From IMG/VR virus record IMGVR_UViG_3300046832_003565: a stretch of DNA of 64,000 nt; one strand, 5' to 3'. How positions within the stretch are numbered: the stretch's first letter is position 1; each line of letters starts with the position of its first letter. Of the stretch, positions 3-63,188 are shown in pieces. Made by a program: the position numbers and the translations under genes. The stretch is from an uncultured virus (IMG/VR IMGVR_UViG_3300046832_003565) (taxonomy: Duplodnaviria > Heunggongvirae > Uroviricota > Caudoviricetes). Under the pieces are notes generated by a model. The model saw nothing but the letters and a program-made list of their open reading frames with translations. It ran no database searches and was not told the origin of the DNA.

Positions 3-599
3 GCTAGATTTTTATTAGATCCAACAATAGATGAAAATGTAAAAAAATATTTACAAGGTGAAATTTATGTAAGTAAGCTTTTAACTAATAAAGACTTTGA
101 TAAAGCTAGTCAATACATAAAAAGTTTGGACGATATTCCAATGATGCAAATGCGATATTTATTTGATGTAAAAAATCCTATAATTGATAAATTTATAGAT
201 GAAAATTTTATTCATAAAATAAGAAATTTTGGATTTTATGATGTCAAAATTATTACCAACTTAATCGAATGGTATCCACAAATAAGACAATATATTACAT
301 ATAATATATTGTTCAATCTAATTCAAAAAGATTCAAGATATGGATCTTATATGGAACAAAAACTTATTCCAGTTTTGTTAGAATTTTATCCTGATTTCTT
401 TAAAGAAAATGTTGAAAGACTAAAGATATCTGATGAAACAAAAAACATGATAAGACAAAAATTGTCATTACAAACACCCGAAGAACCTACTATCGCTTCA
501 CTAAATATAATTGTAAAAATTGCAAAAACATTAGACTTAAAAAAGAAATATATTTTAGCAGACAAGTTGACAAAAATATTAGGAAAATACAATGTTTAA
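3..599 (+). CDS. 5'-truncated large hypothetical protein with C-terminal KIAxxLD..Y.LAD tag
   Basis: Frame is open from the window start; ends EEPTIASLNIIVKIAKTLDLKKKYILADKLT, nearly the same as the end of the next ORF. Confidence 0.75.
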   Translation, partial: ARFLLDPTIDENVKKYLQGEIYVSKLLTNKDFDKASQYIKSLDDIPMMQMRYLFDVKNPIIDKFIDENFIHKIRNFGFYDVKIITNLIEWYPQIRQYITYNILFNLIQKDSRYGSYMEQKLIPVLLEFYPDFFKENVERLKISDETKNMIRQKLSLQTPEEPTIASLNIIVKIAKTLDLKKKYILADKLTKILGKYNV

Positions 600-16440: not shown

Positions 16441-18438
16441 ATGAAGATTGATGTTAGCAATGATTTGACCATCTCCGGTGGTTCAATTTCATCATCCAAA
16501 TACGGTATCAGCGAAGAGAATGCGCCATTCGTCATTAAGATGATGATTGACAATTTGTATTCAAACAAGCCTTTGGCTATCATTCGTGAATATATCACAA
16601 ATGCATGGGATGCTCATGTCGATGCTGGTATTTCTGACAAGCCAATTGAAATTACCGTACCTACCATGTTCCGTCCAACATTGTGCATTCGTGATTTTGG
16701 TAAAGGTCTTTCACAAGAAGATGTTCTGCATTTCTACACCCAGATGGCAGATTCCCGCAAGCGTCACACTGATGATTTTGTAGGTGGGTTTGGCATTGGA
16801 TGTAAATGTGCATTCTGCTATGTGCCATCTTTCACCGTCACATCTTTCCACAATGGCAAAAAGATGGTGTTCAATGCATCATCGTCTGGTGCTGTACCTG
16901 AAATGAATCTGTTCTATGTGGAAGACTCTACCGAGACAGGTTTTATGGTGCAGATTGATGTTAAGTCTGATGATGTTTACACTTTCCGCAATACCTTGAT
17001 GGATTTTCTTCAGTTCTTCAACCCAAAGCCTATCATCATAAGTGACAGTTATTTCAGCATCCCCGTCTGTGCTAACAAGCTCTTGGAAATGGATGATTGG
17101 TATTGCGTAGATGACCGATACTCCAAGAACCAAATAATTCTTGGTAACGTCCCTTACAATTTTGATGTAAGTATGCTCAAGCTCAATGCCGATGAGAACA
17201 AATTGTATGAAAGCCTTCACACTGTAAAATTTGTCATTCAAATGTCACCCAATGATTTGAATGTGACTCTCAACCGTGAATCTTTAGAATACACTCCGAA
17301 GACTATCAACGCATTGAAAAGCAAATACTTGGAATGCCTATCTGAAGTCAAAATTGCTTTGATTGCAAAGTACAACAATGTAACATCGGTATGGGAAGCC
17401 AAACTACTATACAAGAAATTAGGACAGAAATTCAATTTGTTCCCCGAAGTCGATGGTGTTAAGATTTCAAGTTACAATGCCAATGTTTCAGATTTCAAAT
17501 TCAAAGAGCGAATGTGTAAAAATTCAAAACGCTGGAGCAGTGAATCAAGTGTGATTTGTTGCGACAGTACAGTGATATTTGTAGCACGACCTAACATCAC
17601 CGCCAATTCAATCCGACCAAGAATTGAAGACTACTTTGAAATCAATGGCATAGACTCCGAATGCAGTACAAACAAATATCATTACTTTGTCTTTCGTACC
17701 AATGAAGACGCAGATGAATTTGTAAACTCCACACATATCCGTGGTGCTAACATCGTTGAACTAGATACCATACCTTACATAAGAGTTACAGCCAAAACAT
17801 CCCGTATCATAAGAATTCAATCCCCATGCTACGTTTATCAGCATTCTTACTACGGTAATGGCACTTTTACTGATTGTAAGAAAGATTTAGGTAATGATTC
17901 TGGCGTTTATGTTCCAATAGCGCACTATAAGCCACATAATATGTACCATCTCGGTAAAATGGATACTTATGAGAAAATTAAGACCGAACTGGGCTTAGAT
18001 AACATTTATGGTATCAAAAATGTCGATTTACCCAAGCTTGGTGACAATTGGAAGAAATTAGATGTCTATCTGCAAGAATACTTTGATAGTTATGTAGCAG
18101 AACATCCAGATGCGCTCTTAACTTACGTCCTTACCAGACACATTCCAAGAGCATTCAAATCTTTCAATGAGAAGCTTGACTTTGATTACAAATACAAAGA
18201 TTTATATGCTAAGATTGCCAATAACAGCGATTCTTGGGACTATCGTGTATCCAAAATACGCAGTTTAGTAGGTTATGGTGCAACTTATTCATGCCCTGAA
18301 GCAGATTTATTGATTAAAACGCATAAAGAATGTGTTGAAGAATACTCTTTCCTTGATTTAGTTGATACCCATTCAAATCCAAGCGATAATCAATGGAAAA
18401 TCATTCATAAATACATCAAAATGCACGAATTAGCGTAG
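16441..18438 (+). CDS. rIIA: rIIA-like protein with N-terminal GHKL ATPase
   Basis: LYSNKPLAIIREYITNAWDAH, IRDFGKGLS, GGFGIGCK, NRESLEY; directly upstream of rIIB. Confidence 0.9.
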   Translation: MKIDVSNDLTISGGSISSSKYGISEENAPFVIKMMIDNLYSNKPLAIIREYITNAWDAHVDAGISDKPIEITVPTMFRPTLCIRDFGKGLSQEDVLHFYTQMADSRKRHTDDFVGGFGIGCKCAFCYVPSFTVTSFHNGKKMVFNASSSGAVPEMNLFYVEDSTETGFMVQIDVKSDDVYTFRNTLMDFLQFFNPKPIIISDSYFSIPVCANKLLEMDDWYCVDDRYSKNQIILGNVPYNFDVSMLKLNADENKLYESLHTVKFVIQMSPNDLNVTLNRESLEYTPKTINALKSKYLECLSEVKIALIAKYNNVTSVWEAKLLYKKLGQKFNLFPEVDGVKISSYNANVSDFKFKERMCKNSKRWSSESSVICCDSTVIFVARPNITANSIRPRIEDYFEINGIDSECSTNKYHYFVFRTNEDADEFVNSTHIRGANIVELDTIPYIRVTAKTSRIIRIQSPCYVYQHSYYGNGTFTDCKKDLGNDSGVYVPIAHYKPHNMYHLGKMDTYEKIKTELGLDNIYGIKNVDLPKLGDNWKKLDVYLQEYFDSYVAEHPDALLTYVLTRHIPRAFKSFNEKLDFDYKYKDLYAKIANNSDSWDYRVSKIRSLVGYGATYSCPEADLLIKTHKECVEEYSFLDLVDTHSNPSDNQWKIIHKYIKMHELA

Positions 18439-18627: not shown

Positions 18628-19794
18628 ATGATTAACATTTTTGGTCATCAAGCTGTATTGGAAGGTGAGAATTCCTTCATTACAATTATTGTGGATGGTG
18701 GCATTCAGCATACAATTCGTCATGGTGCTTTGAACTTTGCTAAGGCTGTAGACTTTTACATCGCCCAGAACTGGGAAGAGTTAATCAATGTCATCAGTCC
18801 TGAGAATTATATCAAAAAATTGTACGCCAAGTATGAGCAGATTGAAGTTAAAGACGGCAATGTGTTTGTGAATGATGAGGTCATGCATTCATTAGATGCA
18901 CAACGTATCATTGAATGTCTTGCCAAGGGTGCAGATGCAACCCATATCTTCAAGTTTGTTATTCGATTGCAGAAGAACCCATCCAGCCGTGCAGTTCAAG
19001 AACTGTACAAATTCCTTGAACATAAGAACCTTGGCATTTCCGCCGAAGGTACACTGATTGCATACAAGGCATTGCGTAACAATTACACTGACAAGCACAC
19101 TGGCAAATTTGACAATAGCGTTGGGAATGTGCTTGAAATGCCACGAAATAAAGTGGATGATGATAAGGAACATGGATGCTCTTATGGCTTCCATGCTGGT
19201 TCCCTCAAGTATGCTACCGAGTTTGCATCTGGTAATGACCGTGTAGTATTGGTGGAAATCGACCCTGCCGATGTAGTGTCAATTCCAACCGATTGCGAAT
19301 TCCAAAAACTCCGAACCTGCCGATACAAAGTCATCTCGGAATTTGAGCGTCCCTTGGAAGAGCATATCCCATATGATTCTAGTCTGGAAACAGATGATGT
19401 AGATTTGTGGGAAGACGATGAGTTATCTTGCCCAGAATGCGACTGTTGTTCAATCGATTGCGATTATTGCAATTGCTGTAATGAATGTTGCGATTGTGGG
19501 GATTTTGATGCAGATGTGTGCATGGGAGACCCTGAAGAGCCAAAGACCGAAATCCAATTGGAATTGAATCTTGACAATAAGATGACCTCAAATTGGGCAG
19601 ATGCAAGATTCCAATATCTTGTAATGTTGCCTTGGCTTTTTGCTCATCGACGACCAGCACTTGGAAATGCTCTCAAAAATTTCTACAAGGATATTGATGA
19701 CCATCATAAAATAAATCCAATTTTTGCTATCCTTAAACAATTTACATCTGATGAGGATGCTTATAAGATTTATAAGGAATATACAAATTCTTAG
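18628..19794 (+). CDS. rIIB: rIIB-like protein with Cys-rich insertion
   Basis: NPSSRAVQELYKFLEH, AYKA, MPRNKVDDD, CSYGFHAG, IDPADVVSIP, KLRTCRY. Confidence 0.92.
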   Translation: MINIFGHQAVLEGENSFITIIVDGGIQHTIRHGALNFAKAVDFYIAQNWEELINVISPENYIKKLYAKYEQIEVKDGNVFVNDEVMHSLDAQRIIECLAKGADATHIFKFVIRLQKNPSSRAVQELYKFLEHKNLGISAEGTLIAYKALRNNYTDKHTGKFDNSVGNVLEMPRNKVDDDKEHGCSYGFHAGSLKYATEFASGNDRVVLVEIDPADVVSIPTDCEFQKLRTCRYKVISEFERPLEEHIPYDSSLETDDVDLWEDDELSCPECDCCSIDCDYCNCCNECCDCGDFDADVCMGDPEEPKTEIQLELNLDNKMTSNWADARFQYLVMLPWLFAHRRPALGNALKNFYKDIDDHHKINPIFAILKQFTSDEDAYKIYKEYTNS

Positions 19795-20385: not shown

Positions 20386-20466
20386 CCTCCGGTGGTGGAA
20401 CGGTATACACGACGGACTTAAAATCCGTTGGCGCAAGCCTTACGAGTTCGAATCTCGTCTGGAGGA
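20386..20466 (+). tRNA. tRNA-Leu(TAA)
   Basis: CCTCCGG/CTGGAGG acceptor, ACGGA-CTTAAAA-TCCGT anticodon arm, long variable arm, TTCGAAT T-loop; CCA not encoded. Confidence 0.92.
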
Positions 20467-20470
20467 CTTT

Positions 20471-20542
20471 GGGTTGGTAGCTCAGAGGTAGAGCAGTGCC
20501 CTTTTAAGGCATTGGTCGTGGGTTCGAATCCCACCCGACCCA
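20471..20542 (+). tRNA. tRNA-Lys(TTT)
   Basis: GGGTTGG/CCGACCC acceptor, GTGCC-CTTTTAA-GGCAT arm, GTGGG-TTCGAAT-CCCAC. Confidence 0.95.
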
Positions 20543-20572
20543 TATCCTGTTTTATAGAAAGTTAAAACATAA

Positions 20573-23007: not shown

Positions 23008-23140
23008 TGATAACATAAGAGTGTTCAAGATGACTACAGCATTGAGAACAAAATCCAGAATGTGGTGATTCTGGAACAATGTGTGAAGAATGTTTTTATC
23101 TCCTAACTGTGTTCGTTCCGTCAGCATTCTTCACACATTT

Positions 23141-23207
23141 GGGTGGTTAGCTTAAGTAGAGCAGAGGACATAAACCTTTGATATAGGTGCAAATCCTATA
23201 CCACCTA
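23141..23207 (+). tRNA. Atypical tRNA-like element, anticodon unclear
   Basis: GGGTGGT/ACCACCT acceptor, 5-nt D-loop, AGAGG-ACATAAA-CCTTT arm, ATAGG-TGCAAAT-CCTAT T-arm. Confidence 0.55.
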
Positions 23208-23214
23208 TTGGTTA

Positions 23215-37076: not shown

Positions 37077-37367
37077 TTAGTTTGCAATGTCGATTAGTGA
37101 ACCTTCATACAAATGTTGAGCATAATAGTTTTCAATTTCTTTGCGAACTACGGTATCATCAATTTGTTCGCCATTAGTGCCTTCGATTACTGTAAAATTA
37201 TACACTACATAAGAAATCAACTGTGGAATTACTTTACGTGCATACACCAATACGTGTTCACCTTCAGTAAATTCCCAATCAGTCCAAGTAACAAAAGACT
37301 CTGCGAACTTTGTATCAATACCACAGTCATAAAAGATATCTGTCAGTTTCCAATATTCTACTGTCAT
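37077..37367 (-). CDS. Hypothetical acidic protein
   Basis: Single-gene unit between palindromic elements. Confidence 0.6.
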   Translation of the reverse strand: MTVEYWKLTDIFYDCGIDTKFAESFVTWTDWEFTEGEHVLVYARKVIPQLISYVVYNFTVIEGTNGEQIDDTVVRKEIENYYAQHLYEGSLIDIAN

Positions 37368-37494
37368 TGTCCTATCTCTCTTACACCAATAGTATATAGT
37401 AAGTGGAACTATAAGTCAAGAAAATATATTTATTTGCTCAAATAAAAAATCAGGGGTATGAATTTACCCCTGAAAAACAAATAAAGCAAATAAA

Positions 37495-37810
37495 AACCCC
37501 CAAGAAAATTCTTAGGGGATTTTAGCTGAAACATAGGAGTTCTGATTTGTGATTGGCTGGAATTCAACCAGTACGGAACACAAGGGTAGTTCTTTCGATG
37601 GTCTCTACCTCCGACGATGCCCGTGTCTCAATGAGAGCATAGCACCCAACCACAAATCATTATACTTGGATAGATTGTTTGCGTCAACCATATCCAAGGT
37701 TTCAGTAAAAGATTGTGGATTTAACCACTCCAAGGTTGCTACCCTTATTTGAGTCTCGCAATAGACTCTAGCCGTTCTGGTCTTTTACTGGAATGCGGAT
37801 TCTGACCCAC
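37495..37810 (-). ncRNA. Candidate ~310-nt multi-domain structured RNA
   Basis: TTGACA-17-TAATAT promoter, terminator near 37493-37523, no - strand ORF, many stems and long-range helices. Confidence 0.65.
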
Positions 37811-37833
37811 ATCAATATATTACAGTCAAATCT

Positions 37834-38262
37834 CTAGGATGTCAAGGCTATTTCTTGAAATACATTTTCAAGTTTTTTCCAATCTTCATTTTTGGTATAA
37901 GTGTAATACCAATTGCCATCTTTGTATAGATAGATAAAATCCAAAAAATTATACATGGCAGAAAACAATTCATCTTTAGATGTTATTACAGAATTTACTT
38001 GAGATTCACCACGGTCTCTCTTGTAGAACACTGTAACATTTTCTTCAGCAGAATCAAAAGAATGTGTTTCACCAGATGGATGAATCTCTGGTGCAAGGTA
38101 TGACATATCACCAAAACTTAACAGGTCTTTGATTTTCTCAATTTCATTGTAATTTTCAATGAGTGTTTTTCCTACTCCGGTAGGATATCCATCCCAATGA
38201 CAATAAGAACTCTTGATTGTTCCATCCTCAAGCTCCATACCGATTCTACAACGTGTTGCCAT
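37834..38262 (-). CDS. Conserved phage protein (YCHWDGYP family)
   Basis: MATR.RIG..YCHWDGYP..VG..GDMS..Y.RDRGE. Confidence 0.75.
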   Translation of the reverse strand: MATRCRIGMELEDGTIKSSYCHWDGYPTGVGKTLIENYNEIEKIKDLLSFGDMSYLAPEIHPSGETHSFDSAEENVTVFYKRDRGESQVNSVITSKDELFSAMYNFLDFIYLYKDGNWYYTYTKNEDWKKLENVFQEIALTS

Positions 38263-38412: not shown

Positions 38413-38727
38413 TTAGATTGCTCTTTCCTTTTCTCGGTCATCTGCCTTACTTAACATACAGCACATAAAATAATAAAACAAACCTACAATACAAGCAAAC
38501 ACACCATACTGAAACAGCAAATATGCAACTTTACCATCACCAGTGATAATCCATTCAAACAAACCATAAACCAATGTAAGAGGTGTAGCATAAGCAAGAA
38601 TGGTAAGGATTGATTTAAGTACCTTGAGACCTGTGATTGTATAGAATCTCATGTGACCAAAGAATGCCGCGATTCCGCTACACCACAAAACAACAATAAA
38701 CAAACGGTTAACGATATCTAAAGTCAT
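38413..38727 (-). CDS. Membrane protein, 3 TM
   Basis: Hydrophobic segments; GGAGG RBS. Confidence 0.6.
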   Translation of the reverse strand: MTLDIVNRLFIVVLWCSGIAAFFGHMRFYTITGLKVLKSILTILAYATPLTLVYGLFEWIITGDGKVAYLLFQYGVFACIVGLFYYFMCCMLSKADDREKERAI

Positions 38728-38945
38728 CCTGCTACCTCCCAGTTTTCTGCCATTACATCTTCAGTCTTAAAAGTATAACAAGCCCAAAAACTCATTTCTT
38801 CACCAGTAGACCAAACACATTTAAATTTAAGTGATGATTCTTCTATCTTGACCAATATAACAGTGGTACAGTTAGGATTCCATTTCTTGCTTCTTGTGAT
38901 AGTTTTACCATCACGGAGCATTGGCAATACCTGTTCAAGTTTCAT
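38724..38945 (-). CDS. Small phage protein, leaderless
   Basis: G.TITR..W...EDVMAENWEV pattern; TATAAT 6 nt before ATG. Confidence 0.6.
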   Translation of the reverse strand: MKLEQVLPMLRDGKTITRSKKWNPNCTTVILVKIEESSLKFKCVWSTGEEMSFWACYTFKTEDVMAENWEVAG

Positions 38946-52004: not shown

Positions 52005-52973
52005 ATGAAAAAAGCTTTTACTTTAATTGAATTACTTGTTGTCATCGCTATCATTGCGATTTTGGCAGCAATCCTCTTCCCTGTTTTTGCACAGGCTCGC
52101 GACAAGGCTCGTTCTGCTAGTTGTTTGTCTAATGAGAAGCAAATTGGTTTAGGTCTCATGATGTATACCCAAGATTATGATGAGACTTATCCAACTGCTT
52201 ATTTTTATAAGAACAATACAGCTACAACTAATGGTGGTTCTACTGGTGGTTATGTTCACTTTACAGCTATGATTCATCCTTATATCAAGAATGAGCAAGT
52301 GTGGGTATGTCCATCAGATCCAAACAAGGGTGTTCGTCCTGACAACCCACCATGTGCAAACTGGCTTGATTTAGTTACTCTTGGGTGTGAGGCACAGGTT
52401 CCTCGTCTTTCTTACATTCCAAACTCTGCTATTCTTCCCCGCAAGCGTGGTCCACAAGATGCTCCTAACATTGTTTCAATTGCTGCAGTAGATGCACCAG
52501 CAGATGTAATTGCGATTGCAGAAATGACCAGCAACCTCAACTGTATCCTTCTTGGTTCAAGTGGTCAGACAAACGTAGAAAAGCGTAACAAATCTCACAG
52601 ACCAGTTAACGCCATGATGCGTACAGCAAGTGGCGGTCAGTGGGCTGGACAGAACTTTGCAGATGCAACAGGTCCAATCTTTGCAATCACAAAGTTTGAA
52701 GCTGAAGGCGCTCTTGGTTGGGGTGGTGGATCGGACACTACTAGTGCAAATGGCACAGGTGGATGCAGATCGGTATCTGCAGACACAGGCTATCACACCC
52801 GCTTTATGGAACCAGGTCGCCATACTGGTGGAAGCAATTATGTCTTTGCTGATGGTCATGCAAAATTCTTCAAGTTTGATACAACAATCAACCCAAACAA
52901 CTTCTTATGGGGTAAGAGCTACTACCCAACAGGTCAGCAGATTCTTGATCAAGCTGGATTTCCAGTAAGATAA
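52005..52973 (+). CDS. Prepilin-type N-methylation / DUF1559 / H-X9-DG protein
   Basis: [48 protein letters not shown] and [16 protein letters not shown]. Confidence 0.92.
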
Positions 52974-58552: not shown

Positions 58553-60178
58553 TTATGAGCCTTTTCTGTAAACATTATTATTGTATGATGCAAATTTTTC
58601 ATCATCCTTCAGTATTGTTTCTCTGATTTCTTTAGTATTGATAAAAGGAGTGATATTTTCTTGTTCATCTCCTCCATACCACCATTTTTTATATCCAGAA
58701 GGCAATTTAAACTCTTCGCCTCTTATGTCCTTGAATCTAAATGCGAAATTACTCTTTTCAAACCATTCTTGTATTTTTTCTGCAATTATGAACCACAAAA
58801 ATTCAGGTTGATTTTGATACCATTTTCCGAAATCTTCACCAGGTGAATCATCTTGATATTTTTCCTTCATGTTTTCATATTCTTTTGTAGCCACTTCAAG
58901 AAAAAATCTGGCATCCAAATATTTTCTAAAATCATGAGATATTGGACTTTGGCTTAGGGCTAATAAAGCTTTAGCCACCAATCCATCGTATATTTTTTCA
59001 GCATAATCTTCTAAATCATAATCTTCGATTGTATATTCTTTTCTATCGCCGTAACTATAAGCATCTCTATTTTTGTTTAAACCATTGGTAATCGAATCTA
59101 TAACATTTTGTGTTATATCTGTCATATTAGCCTGGTATAAATTTCCTTCACTGAATTTTTTATAATCAAATACTGGTGATCTGATACCAAATCTATTAAA
59201 ATCTTCAGGAGCATCATCATCGAGATCATCAACTTCATATTCTTCTGGACCATATATAGATCTGTGAATATTGTAATCTATTTCAGTTGGGTCATAAGTC
59301 CAATATATTCCTTCTTGCCAATCTTCAAAATGATCCAACATTGGATTGCGTCTGATATCTTTTTCAATATCGTCTTGGCTTTCAAAAAACTCTTTAATTT
59401 TTTCTACTAAATCATCTTCTGTAATTTTTTTATTATTATGCCCTTTGACTTGTTTAACTTTATCACCAACCACTTCTATTGTTACATGTGGTTGATTTCC
59501 AGGGTCTCTTAAGGAATAAATATTTGTATTGCCTCTTCTTACTTCATCCCAATATCCAGCAACACAGTGGTGCATTTTTGCGCCTTCTACATCTAAATCA
59601 TTTTCAGAAATCACTTCTACCATACTCCAGCCATCTGGGTATTTCATTATTTCATTTCTGTCAGCTGGATTGTAAAATTTACCTGAGCCTCTACCTTGCA
59701 ACATTGATTCCCATTGATCTGTATCTTGGACTACTTCCTCCCAAGATTTTAAGCCTAAATTATAATCGGGATCATTAATTTCAATATTATTTACAAAATC
59801 TTGAACATGAAGAGCTAATTCTAAAAAATTACCATGATCTCCAAAACCACCTTGTGGAATATTATGACTGTATTCTCCATCAGGTCTAGCTGGTTGAACT
59901 CTCCAACCTTTTAATTTATGAAAAAGCCAATTTTTAAATTTTTCATTTTGAAAACGAGCTAATATAAATTGTTCTTCTCTTGTTGGTTTATTTTGTCTGG
60001 ATAGATTTTCTAATTCTTGTAATGAAATGTTAGGATTTTTCTTTATAGCGCCTAGCATTTTACCTTTTGTAGCATCGTCATATTTTGAATTAGAAAAAAC
60101 AGATAATATAGATTCATCTACACCTTGTGTTCTTAGCTTTTCCACTTCATCTTGTAAATTTGCAAATCTATACCACAT
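58553..60178 (-). CDS. MWY-tagged PcfJ-domain protein
   Basis: EGAKMHHCVAGY..IYSLRD..PHVTIE..QVKG..N. Confidence 0.8.
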   Translation of the reverse strand: MWYRFANLQDEVEKLRTQGVDESILSVFSNSKYDDATKGKMLGAIKKNPNISLQELENLSRQNKPTREEQFILARFQNEKFKNWLFHKLKGWRVQPARPDGEYSHNIPQGGFGDHGNFLELALHVQDFVNNIEINDPDYNLGLKSWEEVVQDTDQWESMLQGRGSGKFYNPADRNEIMKYPDGWSMVEVISENDLDVEGAKMHHCVAGYWDEVRRGNTNIYSLRDPGNQPHVTIEVVGDKVKQVKGHNNKKITEDDLVEKIKEFFESQDDIEKDIRRNPMLDHFEDWQEGIYWTYDPTEIDYNIHRSIYGPEEYEVDDLDDDAPEDFNRFGIRSPVFDYKKFSEGNLYQANMTDITQNVIDSITNGLNKNRDAYSYGDRKEYTIEDYDLEDYAEKIYDGLVAKALLALSQSPISHDFRKYLDARFFLEVATKEYENMKEKYQDDSPGEDFGKWYQNQPEFLWFIIAEKIQEWFEKSNFAFRFKDIRGEEFKLPSGYKKWWYGGDEQENITPFINTKEIRETILKDDEKFASYNNNVYRKGS

Positions 60179-60180
60179 AA

Positions 60181-60972
60181 TTAATCCTCTTCAAATAAAT
60201 TGACATCAGAAGTTTGAAATTTTTGTTTATCATTAGATGGCAATCTTTCAATTTTATTTTTGACATCAAAATGCCATTGTGGTGCATCAGAAATTCCAGA
60301 AGGATCAAAACTTGCACTTCCCAATTCATTAGCCATATTTCTAACAAGCTTGAGTTTTTCTTCTTCTGGAAGATTAGAGTGTTCTTCTTTTATTTCTTTA
60401 TCATACGATTGGTAAGGATCAGTAGCTTCAATTGGAAAACCAAGCCCTTTGAATCTTGCCCAAAATGCTTCTTTTGAATGAACACGCCCAGTGATAAATT
60501 TTATATTTGGCTTTTGTATTTGAAGGTATTTTTTAAGCTCTTGATATAATTTTTTTCCAATTCCCCAATCAACTCTAGTAATTGAAGAATCATCAACCAA
60601 ATATCCAGCACTTGATAATTGGTCTAGATATTCAGATTTTTTTTTATCTTCTGGGTTAACAGGTTTTCCGTATTGTTTCTTGCCTTTAGATGTAGGATAT
60701 TCATATATTGATGTGTATATAATACGAGCGGTATCAGAACTGTCAGGAGCTTCGAAATCGATATAACCTAATTTTCTTCCATCATAAAGATAGGCATACA
60801 ATCTATATTCTTCTGGGTATTCATCATCTTCAATCACTTCAAACTTTAAATTATCCAAATCAAAACGTTTAGGTTTTTCACCAGGATTAAGTGGATAAGT
60901 ATTTTTACCAGAAAAATCCATATTGATTTGACCAGAAGGATCAACTTTAGTGATAGCTAATTTGTACCACAT
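60181..60972 (-). CDS. MWY-tagged GNAT-like protein
   Basis: LGYIDF..ARI..WGIGKKLYQEL pattern resembles GNAT motif A. Confidence 0.55.
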   Translation of the reverse strand: MWYKLAITKVDPSGQINMDFSGKNTYPLNPGEKPKRFDLDNLKFEVIEDDEYPEEYRLYAYLYDGRKLGYIDFEAPDSSDTARIIYTSIYEYPTSKGKKQYGKPVNPEDKKKSEYLDQLSSAGYLVDDSSITRVDWGIGKKLYQELKKYLQIQKPNIKFITGRVHSKEAFWARFKGLGFPIEATDPYQSYDKEIKEEHSNLPEEEKLKLVRNMANELGSASFDPSGISDAPQWHFDVKNKIERLPSNDKQKFQTSDVNLFEED

Positions 60973-63188
60973 TATAAATCTCTCTTTATCACTACTGCAA
61001 TACTGCCTGATGAAATCATTTGAGACAATTTTTCACGTTCATTTGAATCTTCAGAAAGTGTTGATTCATATTCTAAAGCAATTTCAATAACACTCTTTAA
61101 AGAATTGATATCGCCTTTTTTTATGTCGTCTATATATTCTTCCCACATCAAATGCAGTTCTTCAGTGATATCTGCAAAATAATTGCCATCATAATCAGGA
61201 TCAGGTCCTTCAGATTTTATTGTTTGCAAGCATTTACTTATGTAAAAATCTTTGATATTTTCTAATATTTGTTTGTTAGATATATCTTTAGAAGGTTTGA
61301 ATAAATCATTGTAGCTAAAATCAGACAGCCCCTCGTCTTGTACTGCTGCTAATCTAAACTTTTTATGATTGTAAGCATAAATCCATTTTTCGGGAGATAC
61401 ATCAGAGTTAGTGTCAAATAATTCTAACTGTCTATTTCTTCCATGGTTGTAGTTTCTGTATTTATTGTAAAATTTCACAACAGAACTTGGAGTGATAGGT
61501 GATAAATCTAAATTCAATCCGATTTTATTAGCTAATCCATAAAACTCAGATGGAAGATTTTTTAACATATATTCATACAATTCATCTGTAAAATAAACTG
61601 AATATACATCGTAGATTCCATCGTATTGTTTAAGTATTTTTTCGCCATCTTCATCAAATTTAGCTCTTCCACGTTTAGGTTCTCTACGATATGGCGACAT
61701 TGCTATATCATCTATTTCTTCTGGACTTTTATCTTTGAAGTTAAATAATCTTGCAGGACCGAGATCTTGTTCTCTAAATTTCCTACTTTGTGGTTCAGTA
61801 ATCTGTTCTAATTCTTCATCAATATAAGTCATTAAGTGATCCTTAACAACTTCAATTTTAAGTTTAGCTTTGACTTCTTTTTGATTAATCCCTAATGGAC
61901 GAGATTCTTTTGCATATTCTTTTAAGTAATTAATATCGTGGCGAATGAACATATCTCCAATATAAGAAATTAATTCTTCAAATCCTTCATAATTAATTTC
62001 TTCAGATGATTTGTAAAATTCTGGATCATCATAATAGCCACCACGGTTTTGTCCTATTTTATCTATCAAATAGTCAATATCAAATTCTTCAATAAATTCA
62101 TCTTCATCTACAGTAACAGGTCGTAAAGGAACTCCTAGACCGTCAGTTGAATCTTCATCAAAATATGGATTTAAGTATTCTTGTATAGATTCTAATGCTC
62201 TGTTTTCATCAGAACCTGATCTAAAATAAAATTCGTGATCATAAGTTTTATCTTTTGAATAATATTTTCCTTGATATATCCATTGCTGAATCAATTTCAA
62301 GTAATCATCTTTAGGTCTGGAATTGCCTTTGCCCTTAATTTGCTGAACAGAGTCTGGTAAATCAATTTCAATGGTTACATGTGGTTGGTTTGATTCATCA
62401 CGTAAAGAAAAGATTTCAATTGTACCCCTTTGAAATTGAGTAAAATAATTGTTAGTTCCTACACAGTGACCCATGATATCGCCTTCAATATCAAAATCAC
62501 TTTCTTCTGTTATCTTGACAATCATCCAACCAACATATTTATCAGATAAACCAATTCTATCAATTGTCTCTTTATCAAAAATGAATACGACATTTGGATC
62601 AACTATTTGTCCATTTTCTTTTTTAATCTTAGTAAATGTTTTTGTTGATGTTTGATTTGCAAGTTCTTCATGCCATCTGTCACTTGCTTGCATTGCTTGA
62701 TCAAGAGTCATTGAAAAAATATTGAATCTTGGGCTTTGATCTAAATGATCTACATACCAGTCAAATACATGTCTTATTTCTGTTCCAATCATGGTAACAG
62801 CGTTGTATGGCATGTTTGAAAATTTTGGGTAAGTGTAATTTTCAGGGTCAAACTGATTAGGTCTATAAGAAGGAATAGCCACTCTATCGACCCATTTGTA
62901 AAAGTTAGCTTTTTGCTCCTCAGATAGATTAGAATTGGTAACCAAAGTATCTATTTCAGAAAGCAATCTCATTTCTTGAATTGAAAGATTATTTGTCTTT
63001 TTTGGACTTAATTTTTCTTCTAACTCATTCCAAGACATTAATGGGTTTTGCATCAATGCGCCAATATATTTTCCTCTTAAGGCAAGATCTGCCATCTCTT
63101 GAAGCTTGGTAATATTGTCTTGGCTTACACCTTTTTCTTTAAGTGTTTCGAAAGCTTTTTCTGCATTTTGTGCAAGTTTATACCACAT
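60972..63188 (-). CDS. MWY-tagged PcfJ-domain protein
   Basis: EGDIMGHCVG..IFSLRD..PHVTIE..QIKGKGN. Confidence 0.8.
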   Translation of the reverse strand: MWYKLAQNAEKAFETLKEKGVSQDNITKLQEMADLALRGKYIGALMQNPLMSWNELEEKLSPKKTNNLSIQEMRLLSEIDTLVTNSNLSEEQKANFYKWVDRVAIPSYRPNQFDPENYTYPKFSNMPYNAVTMIGTEIRHVFDWYVDHLDQSPRFNIFSMTLDQAMQASDRWHEELANQTSTKTFTKIKKENGQIVDPNVVFIFDKETIDRIGLSDKYVGWMIVKITEESDFDIEGDIMGHCVGTNNYFTQFQRGTIEIFSLRDESNQPHVTIEIDLPDSVQQIKGKGNSRPKDDYLKLIQQWIYQGKYYSKDKTYDHEFYFRSGSDENRALESIQEYLNPYFDEDSTDGLGVPLRPVTVDEDEFIEEFDIDYLIDKIGQNRGGYYDDPEFYKSSEEINYEGFEELISYIGDMFIRHDINYLKEYAKESRPLGINQKEVKAKLKIEVVKDHLMTYIDEELEQITEPQSRKFREQDLGPARLFNFKDKSPEEIDDIAMSPYRREPKRGRAKFDEDGEKILKQYDGIYDVYSVYFTDELYEYMLKNLPSEFYGLANKIGLNLDLSPITPSSVVKFYNKYRNYNHGRNRQLELFDTNSDVSPEKWIYAYNHKKFRLAAVQDEGLSDFSYNDLFKPSKDISNKQILENIKDFYISKCLQTIKSEGPDPDYDGNYFADITEELHLMWEEYIDDIKKGDINSLKSVIEIALEYESTLSEDSNEREKLSQMISSGSIAVVIKRDL

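Follow-up and report, generated by a model that had tools for sequence, protein, structure and literature searches.

A 64-kb fragment of an uncultured large phage with 33% guanine-plus-cytosine (GC) content (IMG/VR record IMGVR_UViG_3300046832_003565; the whole stretch of 64,000 nucleotides (nt) is called the window below) carries on its minus strand, at positions 37811-37490, a stand-alone gene for a stable folded non-coding RNA of ~320 nt. The RNA represents a strongly conserved family that is not catalogued in Rfam 15 and occurs in at least two unrelated lineages of freshwater phages. As to its function we are more cautious: it may act in trans as a transfer RNA (tRNA)-like decoy, sponge or ribonucleoprotein (RNP) scaffold from an exchangeable pool of early, counter-defence genes, a reading to which we give somewhat less than an even chance.

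The minimum-free-energy fold of 37490-37815 (minus strand, as for all features of the RNA given below) has an energy of -111.6 kcal/mol, compared with -81.5 ± 4.9 kcal/mol in 100 shuffled sequences (z = -6.17), none of which was as stable. A preliminary description of this DNA had listed a series of helices, and all of them are present both in the sequence and in this fold: the 5' hairpin GTGGGT/ATCCGC, the stem CAGTAAAAGA/TCTTTTACTG closing domain 1 with the inner stems GAGTCT/AGACTC and GTGG/CCAC, the central stem CTTGGATA/TATCCAAG, and the stem TGATTTGTGGTTGG/CCAATCACAAATCA closing domain 2. The GC content that it had judged to be above that of the flanks is 0.435-0.445 over 37500-37799 versus 0.28-0.36 in the flanking DNA.

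We numbered the RNA so that reference position 1 (ref 1) is window position 37819 and ref n is 37820 - n. The 5'-terminal hairpin P0 (GUGGGU/AUCCGC, 37793-37812), seen in the fold, varies in sequence among clades. Domain 1 (37703-37790; fold z = -3.5) is a four-way junction that consists of the closing stem P1 (ref 30-39 with 108-117), P2 (ref 52-57 with 64-69, loop AUUGCG), P2b (ref 74-77 with 85-88, loop GUAGCAA) and P2c (ref 92-95 with 102-105), and it contains the invariant 12-nt strand CCAGAACGGCUA. It is followed by the long hairpin P3 (37665-37698; ref 122-134 with 144-155) with the near-invariant loop UGACGCAAACA. Domain 2 (37546-37656) is a cloverleaf-shaped four-way junction of P4, P5/P6, P7/P8 and P9, in which P4 is the closing stem of 11 base pairs (bp) (ref 164-174 with 264-274), P7 pairs ref 207-209 with 244-246, and P8 (ref 211-215 with 231-235) carries the invariant 15-nt loop AGAGACCAUCGAAAGAA and is followed by a variable linker. 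The last arm, P9, is a T-arm-like hairpin, CUGG-UUGAAUU-CCAG (37557-37571; ref 249-252 with 260-263), that abuts the 3' strand of P4.

Relatives of the RNA were gathered by exact-motif scans of IMG/VR, of metagenome contigs and of contigs from metagenome-assembled genomes (MAGs). An exact 21-mer of domain 1 matched 19 IMG/VR loci, the T-arm motif 18 loci (three of them new records), and the P3-loop motif 36 loci, about half of which were chance matches and two were new records; the P8-loop motif, with 19 viral loci, gave no record beyond the known ones. The RNA is thus carried by ~25 viral records in IMG/VR and, according to a 19-base pattern, by at least 118 metagenome contigs, L123 and L188 being non-members among the matches listed; it also occurs on one 4.3-kb contig of a Crocinitomicaceae MAG. 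The collection comprised 107 distinct full-length sequences, including one chance match (L123). Alignment A1 was made from 91 of the 101 distinct trimmed sequences, with the exclusion of seven that have a 95-nt insertion and of three that apparently have other 3' modules (L010, L049 and L065); L065 later matched the covariance model of domain 2, and one row of A1, L188, is a non-member.

In A1, 96.7% of 6813 cells can pair, versus 32-44% when the partners are slid by 1-3 columns. Changes on both sides of a pair were found in 41 of the 75 pairs (487 cells), compared with 21.3 ± 1.8 in shuffles, none of 500 of which reached 41; many of these changes separate only two clades, and the shuffle control is not a probability. 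Both sides have changed in 5 of 10 pairs of P1, 5 of 6 of P2, 4 of 4 of P2c and 8 of 12 of P3. P2b is invariant, which is expected because the homologues were collected with that motif. The P7 pair 209-244 illustrates the range of replacements, being G-C in 75 rows, U-A in 10, A-U in 3, C-G in 1 and G-U in 2. Independently, RNAalifold predicted the cloverleaf from 15 domain-2 sequences, with compensatory changes in 12 of 36 pairs, and the covarying helices P4, P5/P6, P7/P8 and P9 agree with that prediction. The stems therefore drift by compensatory change, with ~100 loop and junction bases held invariant, and the covariation, the lack of which the preliminary description would have taken as grounds for withdrawing its call, is strong on the 91 sequences.

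The RNA is non-coding. Among 260 runs of insertions or deletions, 206 have a length of 1 modulo 3 and only 18 a length of 0 modulo 3, and the longest open reading frame (ORF) varies from 10 to 80 codons, on either strand, inconsistently among members.

The preliminary description had also noticed that the interiors of the two domains are complementary to each other and had read this as a large pseudoknot, a switch or intermolecular pairing. The literal matches are indeed there (AAGGGTAG/CTACCCTT and ACCAG-A-ACGG/CCGT-A-CTGGT), but the structures built on them find no support in the 91 sequences. By a rough estimate, ~0.7 complements of 8 nt are expected by chance in a 300-nt RNA. The 17 inter-domain pairs are pairable in 91.6% of the cells of A1, and the core GGUAG:CUGCC in every row that has letters there; however, the shuffle mean is 91.4%, and not one of the 17 pairs shows a two-sided change. 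The proposed pseudoknot clashes with the local helices, its pairs being lost at just those places where the latter covary: its 3' partners CCG and CTGCC are strands of P7 and P8, the 3' side as a whole is used by P7, P8 and P9, and where ref 244 varies the change tracks ref 209 and not G48. Sequences of the L012/L019 type, which have CCTAAACGG, and the CCUAAACGG variants (19-20 rows) break the ACCAG:CUGGU part, and in the CCUAAACGG and CUGCUAAUU variants proposed pairs are lost without compensation. We therefore regard mutual pairing of the domain interiors, whether as a giant pseudoknot or switch in one molecule or as oligomers between molecules, as highly improbable, and conclude from the sequence comparison that the complementarity is a by-product of two conserved GGYAG-type words lying opposite a single CUGCC.

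A different long-range contact is better supported than the inter-domain pairing. The sequence UUGCG in the P2 loop (37757-37761) is complementary over 5 bp to CGCAA in the P3 loop (37679-37683), and comparison of the loops led us to propose the two as kissing partners. Among 102 distinct sequences, 95 have UUGCG:CGCAA, as does L187, which has a 1-nt insertion and was misparsed by the script. Variants with a G-U pair were found four times (two UUGUG:CGCAA and two UUGCG:CGUAA), a true compensation, UUGUG:CACAA, once (L010, from the complete phage G008), and a terminal mismatch once (L122). This evidence for a P2:P3 loop-loop contact, which might form within one molecule or between molecules, is suggestive but thin.

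The preliminary description had given the RNA a promoter and a terminator of its own, and both can be located on the minus strand. A sigma70-type promoter, TTGACA-17-TAATAT, with 10 of 12 consensus positions, lies at 37845-37817 and would place the start of transcription near 37810. Beyond domain 2, a 3' linker and an intrinsic terminator occupy 37545-37487, the latter with a 9-bp stem at 37518-37497 followed by a U run. A sequence scan revealed a second, back-up terminator at 37473-37450 (within the element 37473-37440), after which comes the promoter of the next gene (37419-37391). In a 1.5-kb scan around the RNA, six terminator-like sites were observed versus 0.7 ± 0.8 expected; promoter-like sites, with 9 versus 7.1 ± 2.8 expected, are not enriched as a class. 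The RNA interrupts no host gene, because the upstream ORF has its own stop at 37834. Relatives share the arrangement: a TTGnnn-16..18-TAnnnT site precedes P1 in 64 of the 70 distinct relatives with enough flank, and a 5' hairpin (-4 kcal/mol or lower), differing in sequence, lies between promoter and P1 in 69 of the 70. A strict terminator (a hairpin followed by at least T4, within 170 nt) was found in 41 of 68 relatives, and ~13 more have a terminator-type hairpin with an interrupted U run, TTTATTT; the rest continue into a gene or into tRNAs. We also observed that the terminator-plus-promoter spacer at 37400-37510 (minus strand) recurs in the 52-kb IMG/VR record G001, whose copy of the locus is identical to that of the window, at five further places with 74-84% identity, with an additional 22-nt match of 95% identity upstream; from its sequence it looks like a repeated intergenic 'punctuation' module that separates early genes.

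These signals bear on the possibility that the RNA regulates phage mRNAs, either in cis as a leader or as an antisense RNA. Some relatives do resemble a leader: in G008, domain 1 and P3 are directly followed by a ribosome-binding site (RBS) and an ORF of 88 codons, and in G010 the complete RNA is followed by an RBS and an ORF of 121 codons, in both cases with no terminator in between, and six relatives continue straight into the promoter and RBS of the next gene. In the window, however, two terminators and a separate promoter stand between the RNA and the next gene, and the downstream genes vary among phages, on which grounds a riboswitch or cis leader was rejected. As for antisense action, neither the window nor the 358-kb phage G004 has an excess of 9-mers complementary to the conserved loops once the RNA's own antisense strand has been subtracted. 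We thus consider regulation of this kind very doubtful.

Transcription is further indicated by RNA libraries. Words of the stretch were found in 22 RNA-library runs from freshwater, riverine and lake-water metatranscriptomes, which together with two other listed runs come from 23 studies; four of the runs (X1, X2, X3 and X7) were examined. Run X1 contains one 274-nt contig (37525-37798, two differences) that lies wholly inside the RNA and spans domain 1, P3 and domain 2. Run X7 contains 22 pieces, with a summed word depth of up to ~2175 over 37541-37757 versus at most 2 over the neighbouring ORF (37231-37350), although conserved parts of relatives add to this depth. Runs X2 and X3 contain parts of the RNA only. 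Bins with no cover (37851-38100 and most of 37355-37447) are uninformative by themselves, and DNA carry-over is possible in RNA libraries. The contigs, which attest to presence and contiguity, cover the RNA, in line with the transcript that the preliminary description expected, and they favour an abundant, stable one.

No known family could be assigned to the RNA, in agreement with the preliminary description. At the gathering thresholds, Rfam 15 had no match at the locus; with expectation values (E) up to 10, only sub-threshold matches on the terminator hairpins appeared, and 18 diverse relatives gave none at E up to 0.01. ARAGORN called neither a tRNA nor a transfer-messenger RNA (tmRNA) at the RNA or in eight relatives. 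A blastn comparison with 50,697 GenBank phages, in which the queries were a 3-kb region and, at E up to 10, the RNA by itself, returned a single 33-nt chance match; therefore, no cultured phage carries the RNA at that blastn sensitivity. Strings of the RNA's motifs had no occurrence in a literature text search. A 2023 survey (PMC10690425) predicted thousands of unnamed structured-RNA candidates from IMG/VR, the same data source as ours, some of them tRNA-like; it gives no function for such RNAs.

Several specific classes were tried and rejected. A tmRNA requires a tRNA-like domain and a tag reading frame, and there is neither an ARAGORN or Rfam call nor a tag ORF. RNase P RNA was dismissed on finding no Rfam RNase P family at E up to 10; the word CAGAACGGCU in the RNA is similar to CAGAACCCGGCUUA in the 3' strand of RNase P P4, but the RNA has no complementary 5' strand. 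For a group I or group II intron or another self-splicing element there is no Rfam intron match and no interrupted gene, and for a Y RNA or YrlA there is no Rfam match and no TROVE protein in five carrier phages. GOLLD, ROOL, HEARO, OLE and raiA, which are large 'ornate' non-coding RNAs of bacteria and phages included in Rfam, gave no covariance-model match near the gathering score, and neither did any other Rfam 15 family. The RNA resembles these 'ornate' RNAs in being large, multi-junction, conserved, phage-borne, found by comparison and sometimes located beside tRNAs, but it is smaller (a core of ~270 nt) and built of cloverleaf-like modules.

The RNA might instead be a ribozyme, or catalyse a reaction or bind a ligand in some other way, with an active site made up of its invariant junction and loop bases. 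This would account for the ~100 invariant bases outside drifting helices and for the probable tertiary loop-loop contact, and the size and complexity of the RNA are typical of 'ornate' RNAs. On the other hand, Rfam yielded no ribozyme or riboswitch match at E up to 10, and there is neither a conserved flanking substrate nor a gene association that would indicate a reaction. We consider this alternative unlikely.

The carriers of the RNA are diverse. They include jumbo phages of 300-358 kb that are 84-89% complete and two 100%-complete phages of 84 and 70 kb, G008 and G010, which have a GC content of 45-46% and are related to each other. Comparison of G008 and G010 with the window (blastp, E 1e-4) gave few, short and weak matches, mostly to overlapping ORFs on the opposite strand, and with the 358-kb G004 they have in common only a dUTPase, a CHAP endolysin, one large protein, a Tad2-like protein and a few small ORFs. 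Since so few proteins are shared, the RNA moves between, or is retained by, very different phages, which probably infect the same hosts.

Two covariance models, R1 for domain 1 plus P3 and R2 for domain 2, were used to follow the parts of the RNA. R1 found a single copy in the window and a single copy per record in all 21 viral records searched. R2 found domain 2 only beside domain 1, at E below 1e-20 in 17 of 22 records and, in addition, in one cut fragment; no match to it was obtained in G019 and G021, in both of which the RNA is close to the end of a contig. In G007 (L049) the place of domain 2 is taken by a different module of 87 nt, in which a closing stem of 12 bp encloses three hairpins. 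This L049 module lies ~90-180 nt past the domain-1 motif, contains the word GGUUCGAGGCC, ends with ...CUACUACCA and received no ARAGORN call; in its predicted form it resembles a further non-canonical tRNA-like unit. In seven distinct sequences, P3 and domain 2 are separated by an additional 95-nt module that has a closing stem of its own and three hairpins, and some members have a ~30-nt hairpin within the variable linker of domain 2. Through this gain, loss and exchange of modules the locus behaves like a string of cloverleaf-like units, in which domain 1 and P3 form the constant core.

Such a chain could also be a precursor array, from which host tRNA-processing enzymes cut separate cloverleaf-like small RNAs that then act separately. 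The units would be domain 1 plus P3, the optional inserted module and domain 2, in the manner of the tRNAs and of rnaC and rnaD in the tRNA cluster of phage T4. Modules are gained, lost and swapped at the border between P3 and domain 2, as in the 95-nt insertion, G007 and G008, and this border is A/U-rich and single-stranded. It is here, inside P3 and the linker, that a promoter-like site (TTGACG-17-TATAAT, 37687-37659, 11 of 12 consensus positions) is located, which would initiate at the first bases of domain 2; the arrangement is kept in 41 of 90 relatives, all of a single clade. The array is further favoured by 4 of 169 distinct loci (L095, L118, L178 and L195) in which tRNA genes come straight after the RNA, tRNA-Leu(UAA) and tRNA-Lys(UUU) following on the same strand ~25 nt past domain 2; the same pair of tRNAs is also present in the window, at 20386-20543 on the plus strand. 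In contrast, the 274-nt RNA-library contig spans all of domain 1, P3 and domain 2, and domain 2 never occurs apart from domain 1 in the 22 records. This interpretation overlaps with a decoy or RNP scaffold and does not exclude it; we regard it as possible, with less confidence than we give to the decoy or scaffold. With the tRNA pair 3' of the RNA in four relatives, the RNA therefore moves into and out of a tRNA cluster.

The likeness of domain 2 to a tRNA is topological: the domain is a four-way junction, and its T-loop arm continues directly into the closing stem. A tRNA has a 7-bp acceptor stem, a discriminator base and a CCA end, and the T-loop consensus is UUCRANN. P9 combines an arm of 4 bp with a loop of 7 nt in which U1, U2 and A5 of the T-loop are retained; this loop reads UUGAAnU or UUAAAnU in all members, with the sixth position free. 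A mutual-information search for a partner of the variable third base of this loop gave nothing convincing. The 'D' and 'anticodon' arms of domain 2 are long and unrelated to those of tRNA, and its tails are UCA, UCC, UCG or UAA. The tRNA-like domain of tmRNA and YrlA share with it the cloverleaf junction and the T-loop-type arm; the RNA differs in having no tag ORF.

By analogy, the closest known counterpart appears to be the T4 pair rnaC and rnaD. These are stable phage RNAs, the roles of which are still called unknown in two publications (PMC3014915 and PMC9697503). In T4, rnaD (species 2, 119 nt) and rnaC (species 1, 139 nt) follow tRNA-Arg in tandem, ~264 nt in total, and so form two tandem modules inside a tRNA gene cluster. 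The minimum-free-energy fold of rnaC (z = -4.6) has a terminal stem and three hairpins, the last of which is a T-arm, CCGGG-UUCGAAU-CCCGG, abutting the 3' strand, so that the predicted topology is that of domain 2; rnaD has no significant fold (z = -0.8). With filters off, the best scores of R1 and R2 in the T4 tRNA region were 9.4 and 6.6 bits (E 0.16-0.8), and none of these hits falls within rnaC or rnaD themselves. In T4 the two RNAs are late and embedded in their cluster, whereas the RNA described here has its own sigma70-type promoter and terminator among early-type small genes, and the annotated end of rnaD is ...CACC, with A next in the DNA.

The locus sits within a series of small minus-strand genes with strong promoters and terminators. 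Immediately upstream of the RNA, 37834-38262 encode a protein of 142 amino acids (phrog_1987) that belongs to no known family and has no sequence match in PDB and no informative neighbour in the Atlas; a search for related loci with this protein found only the window's own record. Farther upstream, ~900 nt from the RNA, lies the gene for a Tad2-like (Thoeris anti-defence 2) protein of 73 amino acids (38724-38945, minus strand; Pfam PF11195, E 2.4e-7). Among 157 loci, which overlap one another and mostly have only 450 nt of flank, a relative of the phrog_1987 protein was found upstream of the RNA in 46, and Tad2-like relatives within ~1.5 kb on either side in 23.

Its position and its lack of a known family make the phrog_1987 protein a candidate partner, with which the RNA would form an RNP. 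However, blastp (E 1e-4) did not find the protein in the complete carrier phages G008 and G010, and synteny among related jumbo phages would suffice to explain why it lies next to the RNA, so that such a pairing seems rather improbable, slightly more so than a catalytic RNA. Ro (TROVE) and RtcB were likewise found in none of five carrier phages, with the TROVE control positive in two named genomes.

Returning to the decoy, sponge or scaffold, we propose that the RNA would act in trans through its shape. P0 would serve as a 5' protective hairpin, domain 1 and P3 would probably be locked together by the 5-bp loop-loop contact, and the T-loop arm of domain 2 would stack against the closing stem to give a tRNA-shaped module. 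The most likely ligand of this module and of the invariant loops would be a conserved factor, of host or phage, that binds tRNA-like RNAs; candidates are enzymes of processing or modification and defence nucleases that target tRNA. In addition, tRNA-processing RNases may cut the RNA at module borders. The RNA would be made early in infection and would travel as an exchangeable accessory cassette in an early, counter-defence gene region. In favour of this reading are the T-loop-like arm beside the closing stem, the tRNA pair that comes after domain 2 in 4 of 169 loci, the topology shared with T4 rnaC, and the Tad2-like genes near the RNA in the window and in 23 of 157 loci.

Several observations weigh against this proposal. 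The position equivalent to C56 of tRNA is G or A in the loop of P9, the closing stem is 11 bp long instead of 7, there is no CCA end, and with no call by ARAGORN or the Rfam tRNA model the mimicry is topological only. The tRNA-shaped module is inessential to the family, being absent in G008 and replaced in G007. The phrog_1987-like and Tad2-like proteins are not adjacent to the RNA in G008 and G010, and the linkage to counter-defence genes may be shared synteny only. As far as the underlying data are concerned, exact motifs were used to collect the homologues, most of which belong to one of two clades, and the counted cells are therefore not independent events, and the RNA-library contigs are no proof of transcript ends, strand or level.

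Elsewhere, the window encodes relatives of rIIA (16441-18438) and rIIB (18628-19794), a helicase and many small ORFs of unknown function. It has four tRNA genes according to Rfam 15 and ARAGORN, none of them at 37490-37815. One is a 69-nt tRNA-Tyr (23140-23208, plus strand) to which ARAGORN assigns an unusual anticodon, AUA at position 31, and Rfam only 45 bits; this tRNA may be odd or degenerate. A protein of 322 amino acids (52005-52973, plus strand) combines an N-terminal methylation (type IV pilin-like) motif with a DUF1559 domain, a pairing typical of Planctomycetota and Verrucomicrobiota; it may point to the host, or its gene may have been acquired from there. Two PcfJ-like proteins (Pfam PF14284) of 541 and 738 amino acids, encoded on the minus strand at 58553-60178 and 60972-63188, form a paralogous set.

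Large conserved structured RNAs without a known function are rare, and past ones have proved to be ribozymes, cores of RNPs or new regulators. The RNA described here is abundant in freshwater metagenomes and present in freshwater metatranscriptomes, it is common to phages that otherwise share almost no genes, and selection holds its loops and junctions nearly letter-perfect while the stems drift. It is found among early and counter-defence genes and in some phages heads a tRNA cluster. It could, as a tentative suggestion, represent a new 'ornate' class of phage RNA, a modular chain of cloverleaves that is swapped as a cassette between unrelated freshwater phages and functions as a ribozyme or a tRNA-shaped decoy. 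As a second, independent example of a phage RNA of the T4 rnaC/rnaD type, with far richer comparative data, it makes a 50-year-old question about the RNAs of tRNA clusters testable through structure, partners and phenotypes. As a decoy, the RNA would disarm a tRNA-directed defence of the host or hijack its tRNA-processing machinery; if either the ribozyme or the decoy reading is true, it would be a principle of RNA-based counter-defence or takeover not described before for phages and might also explain rnaC and rnaD of T4.

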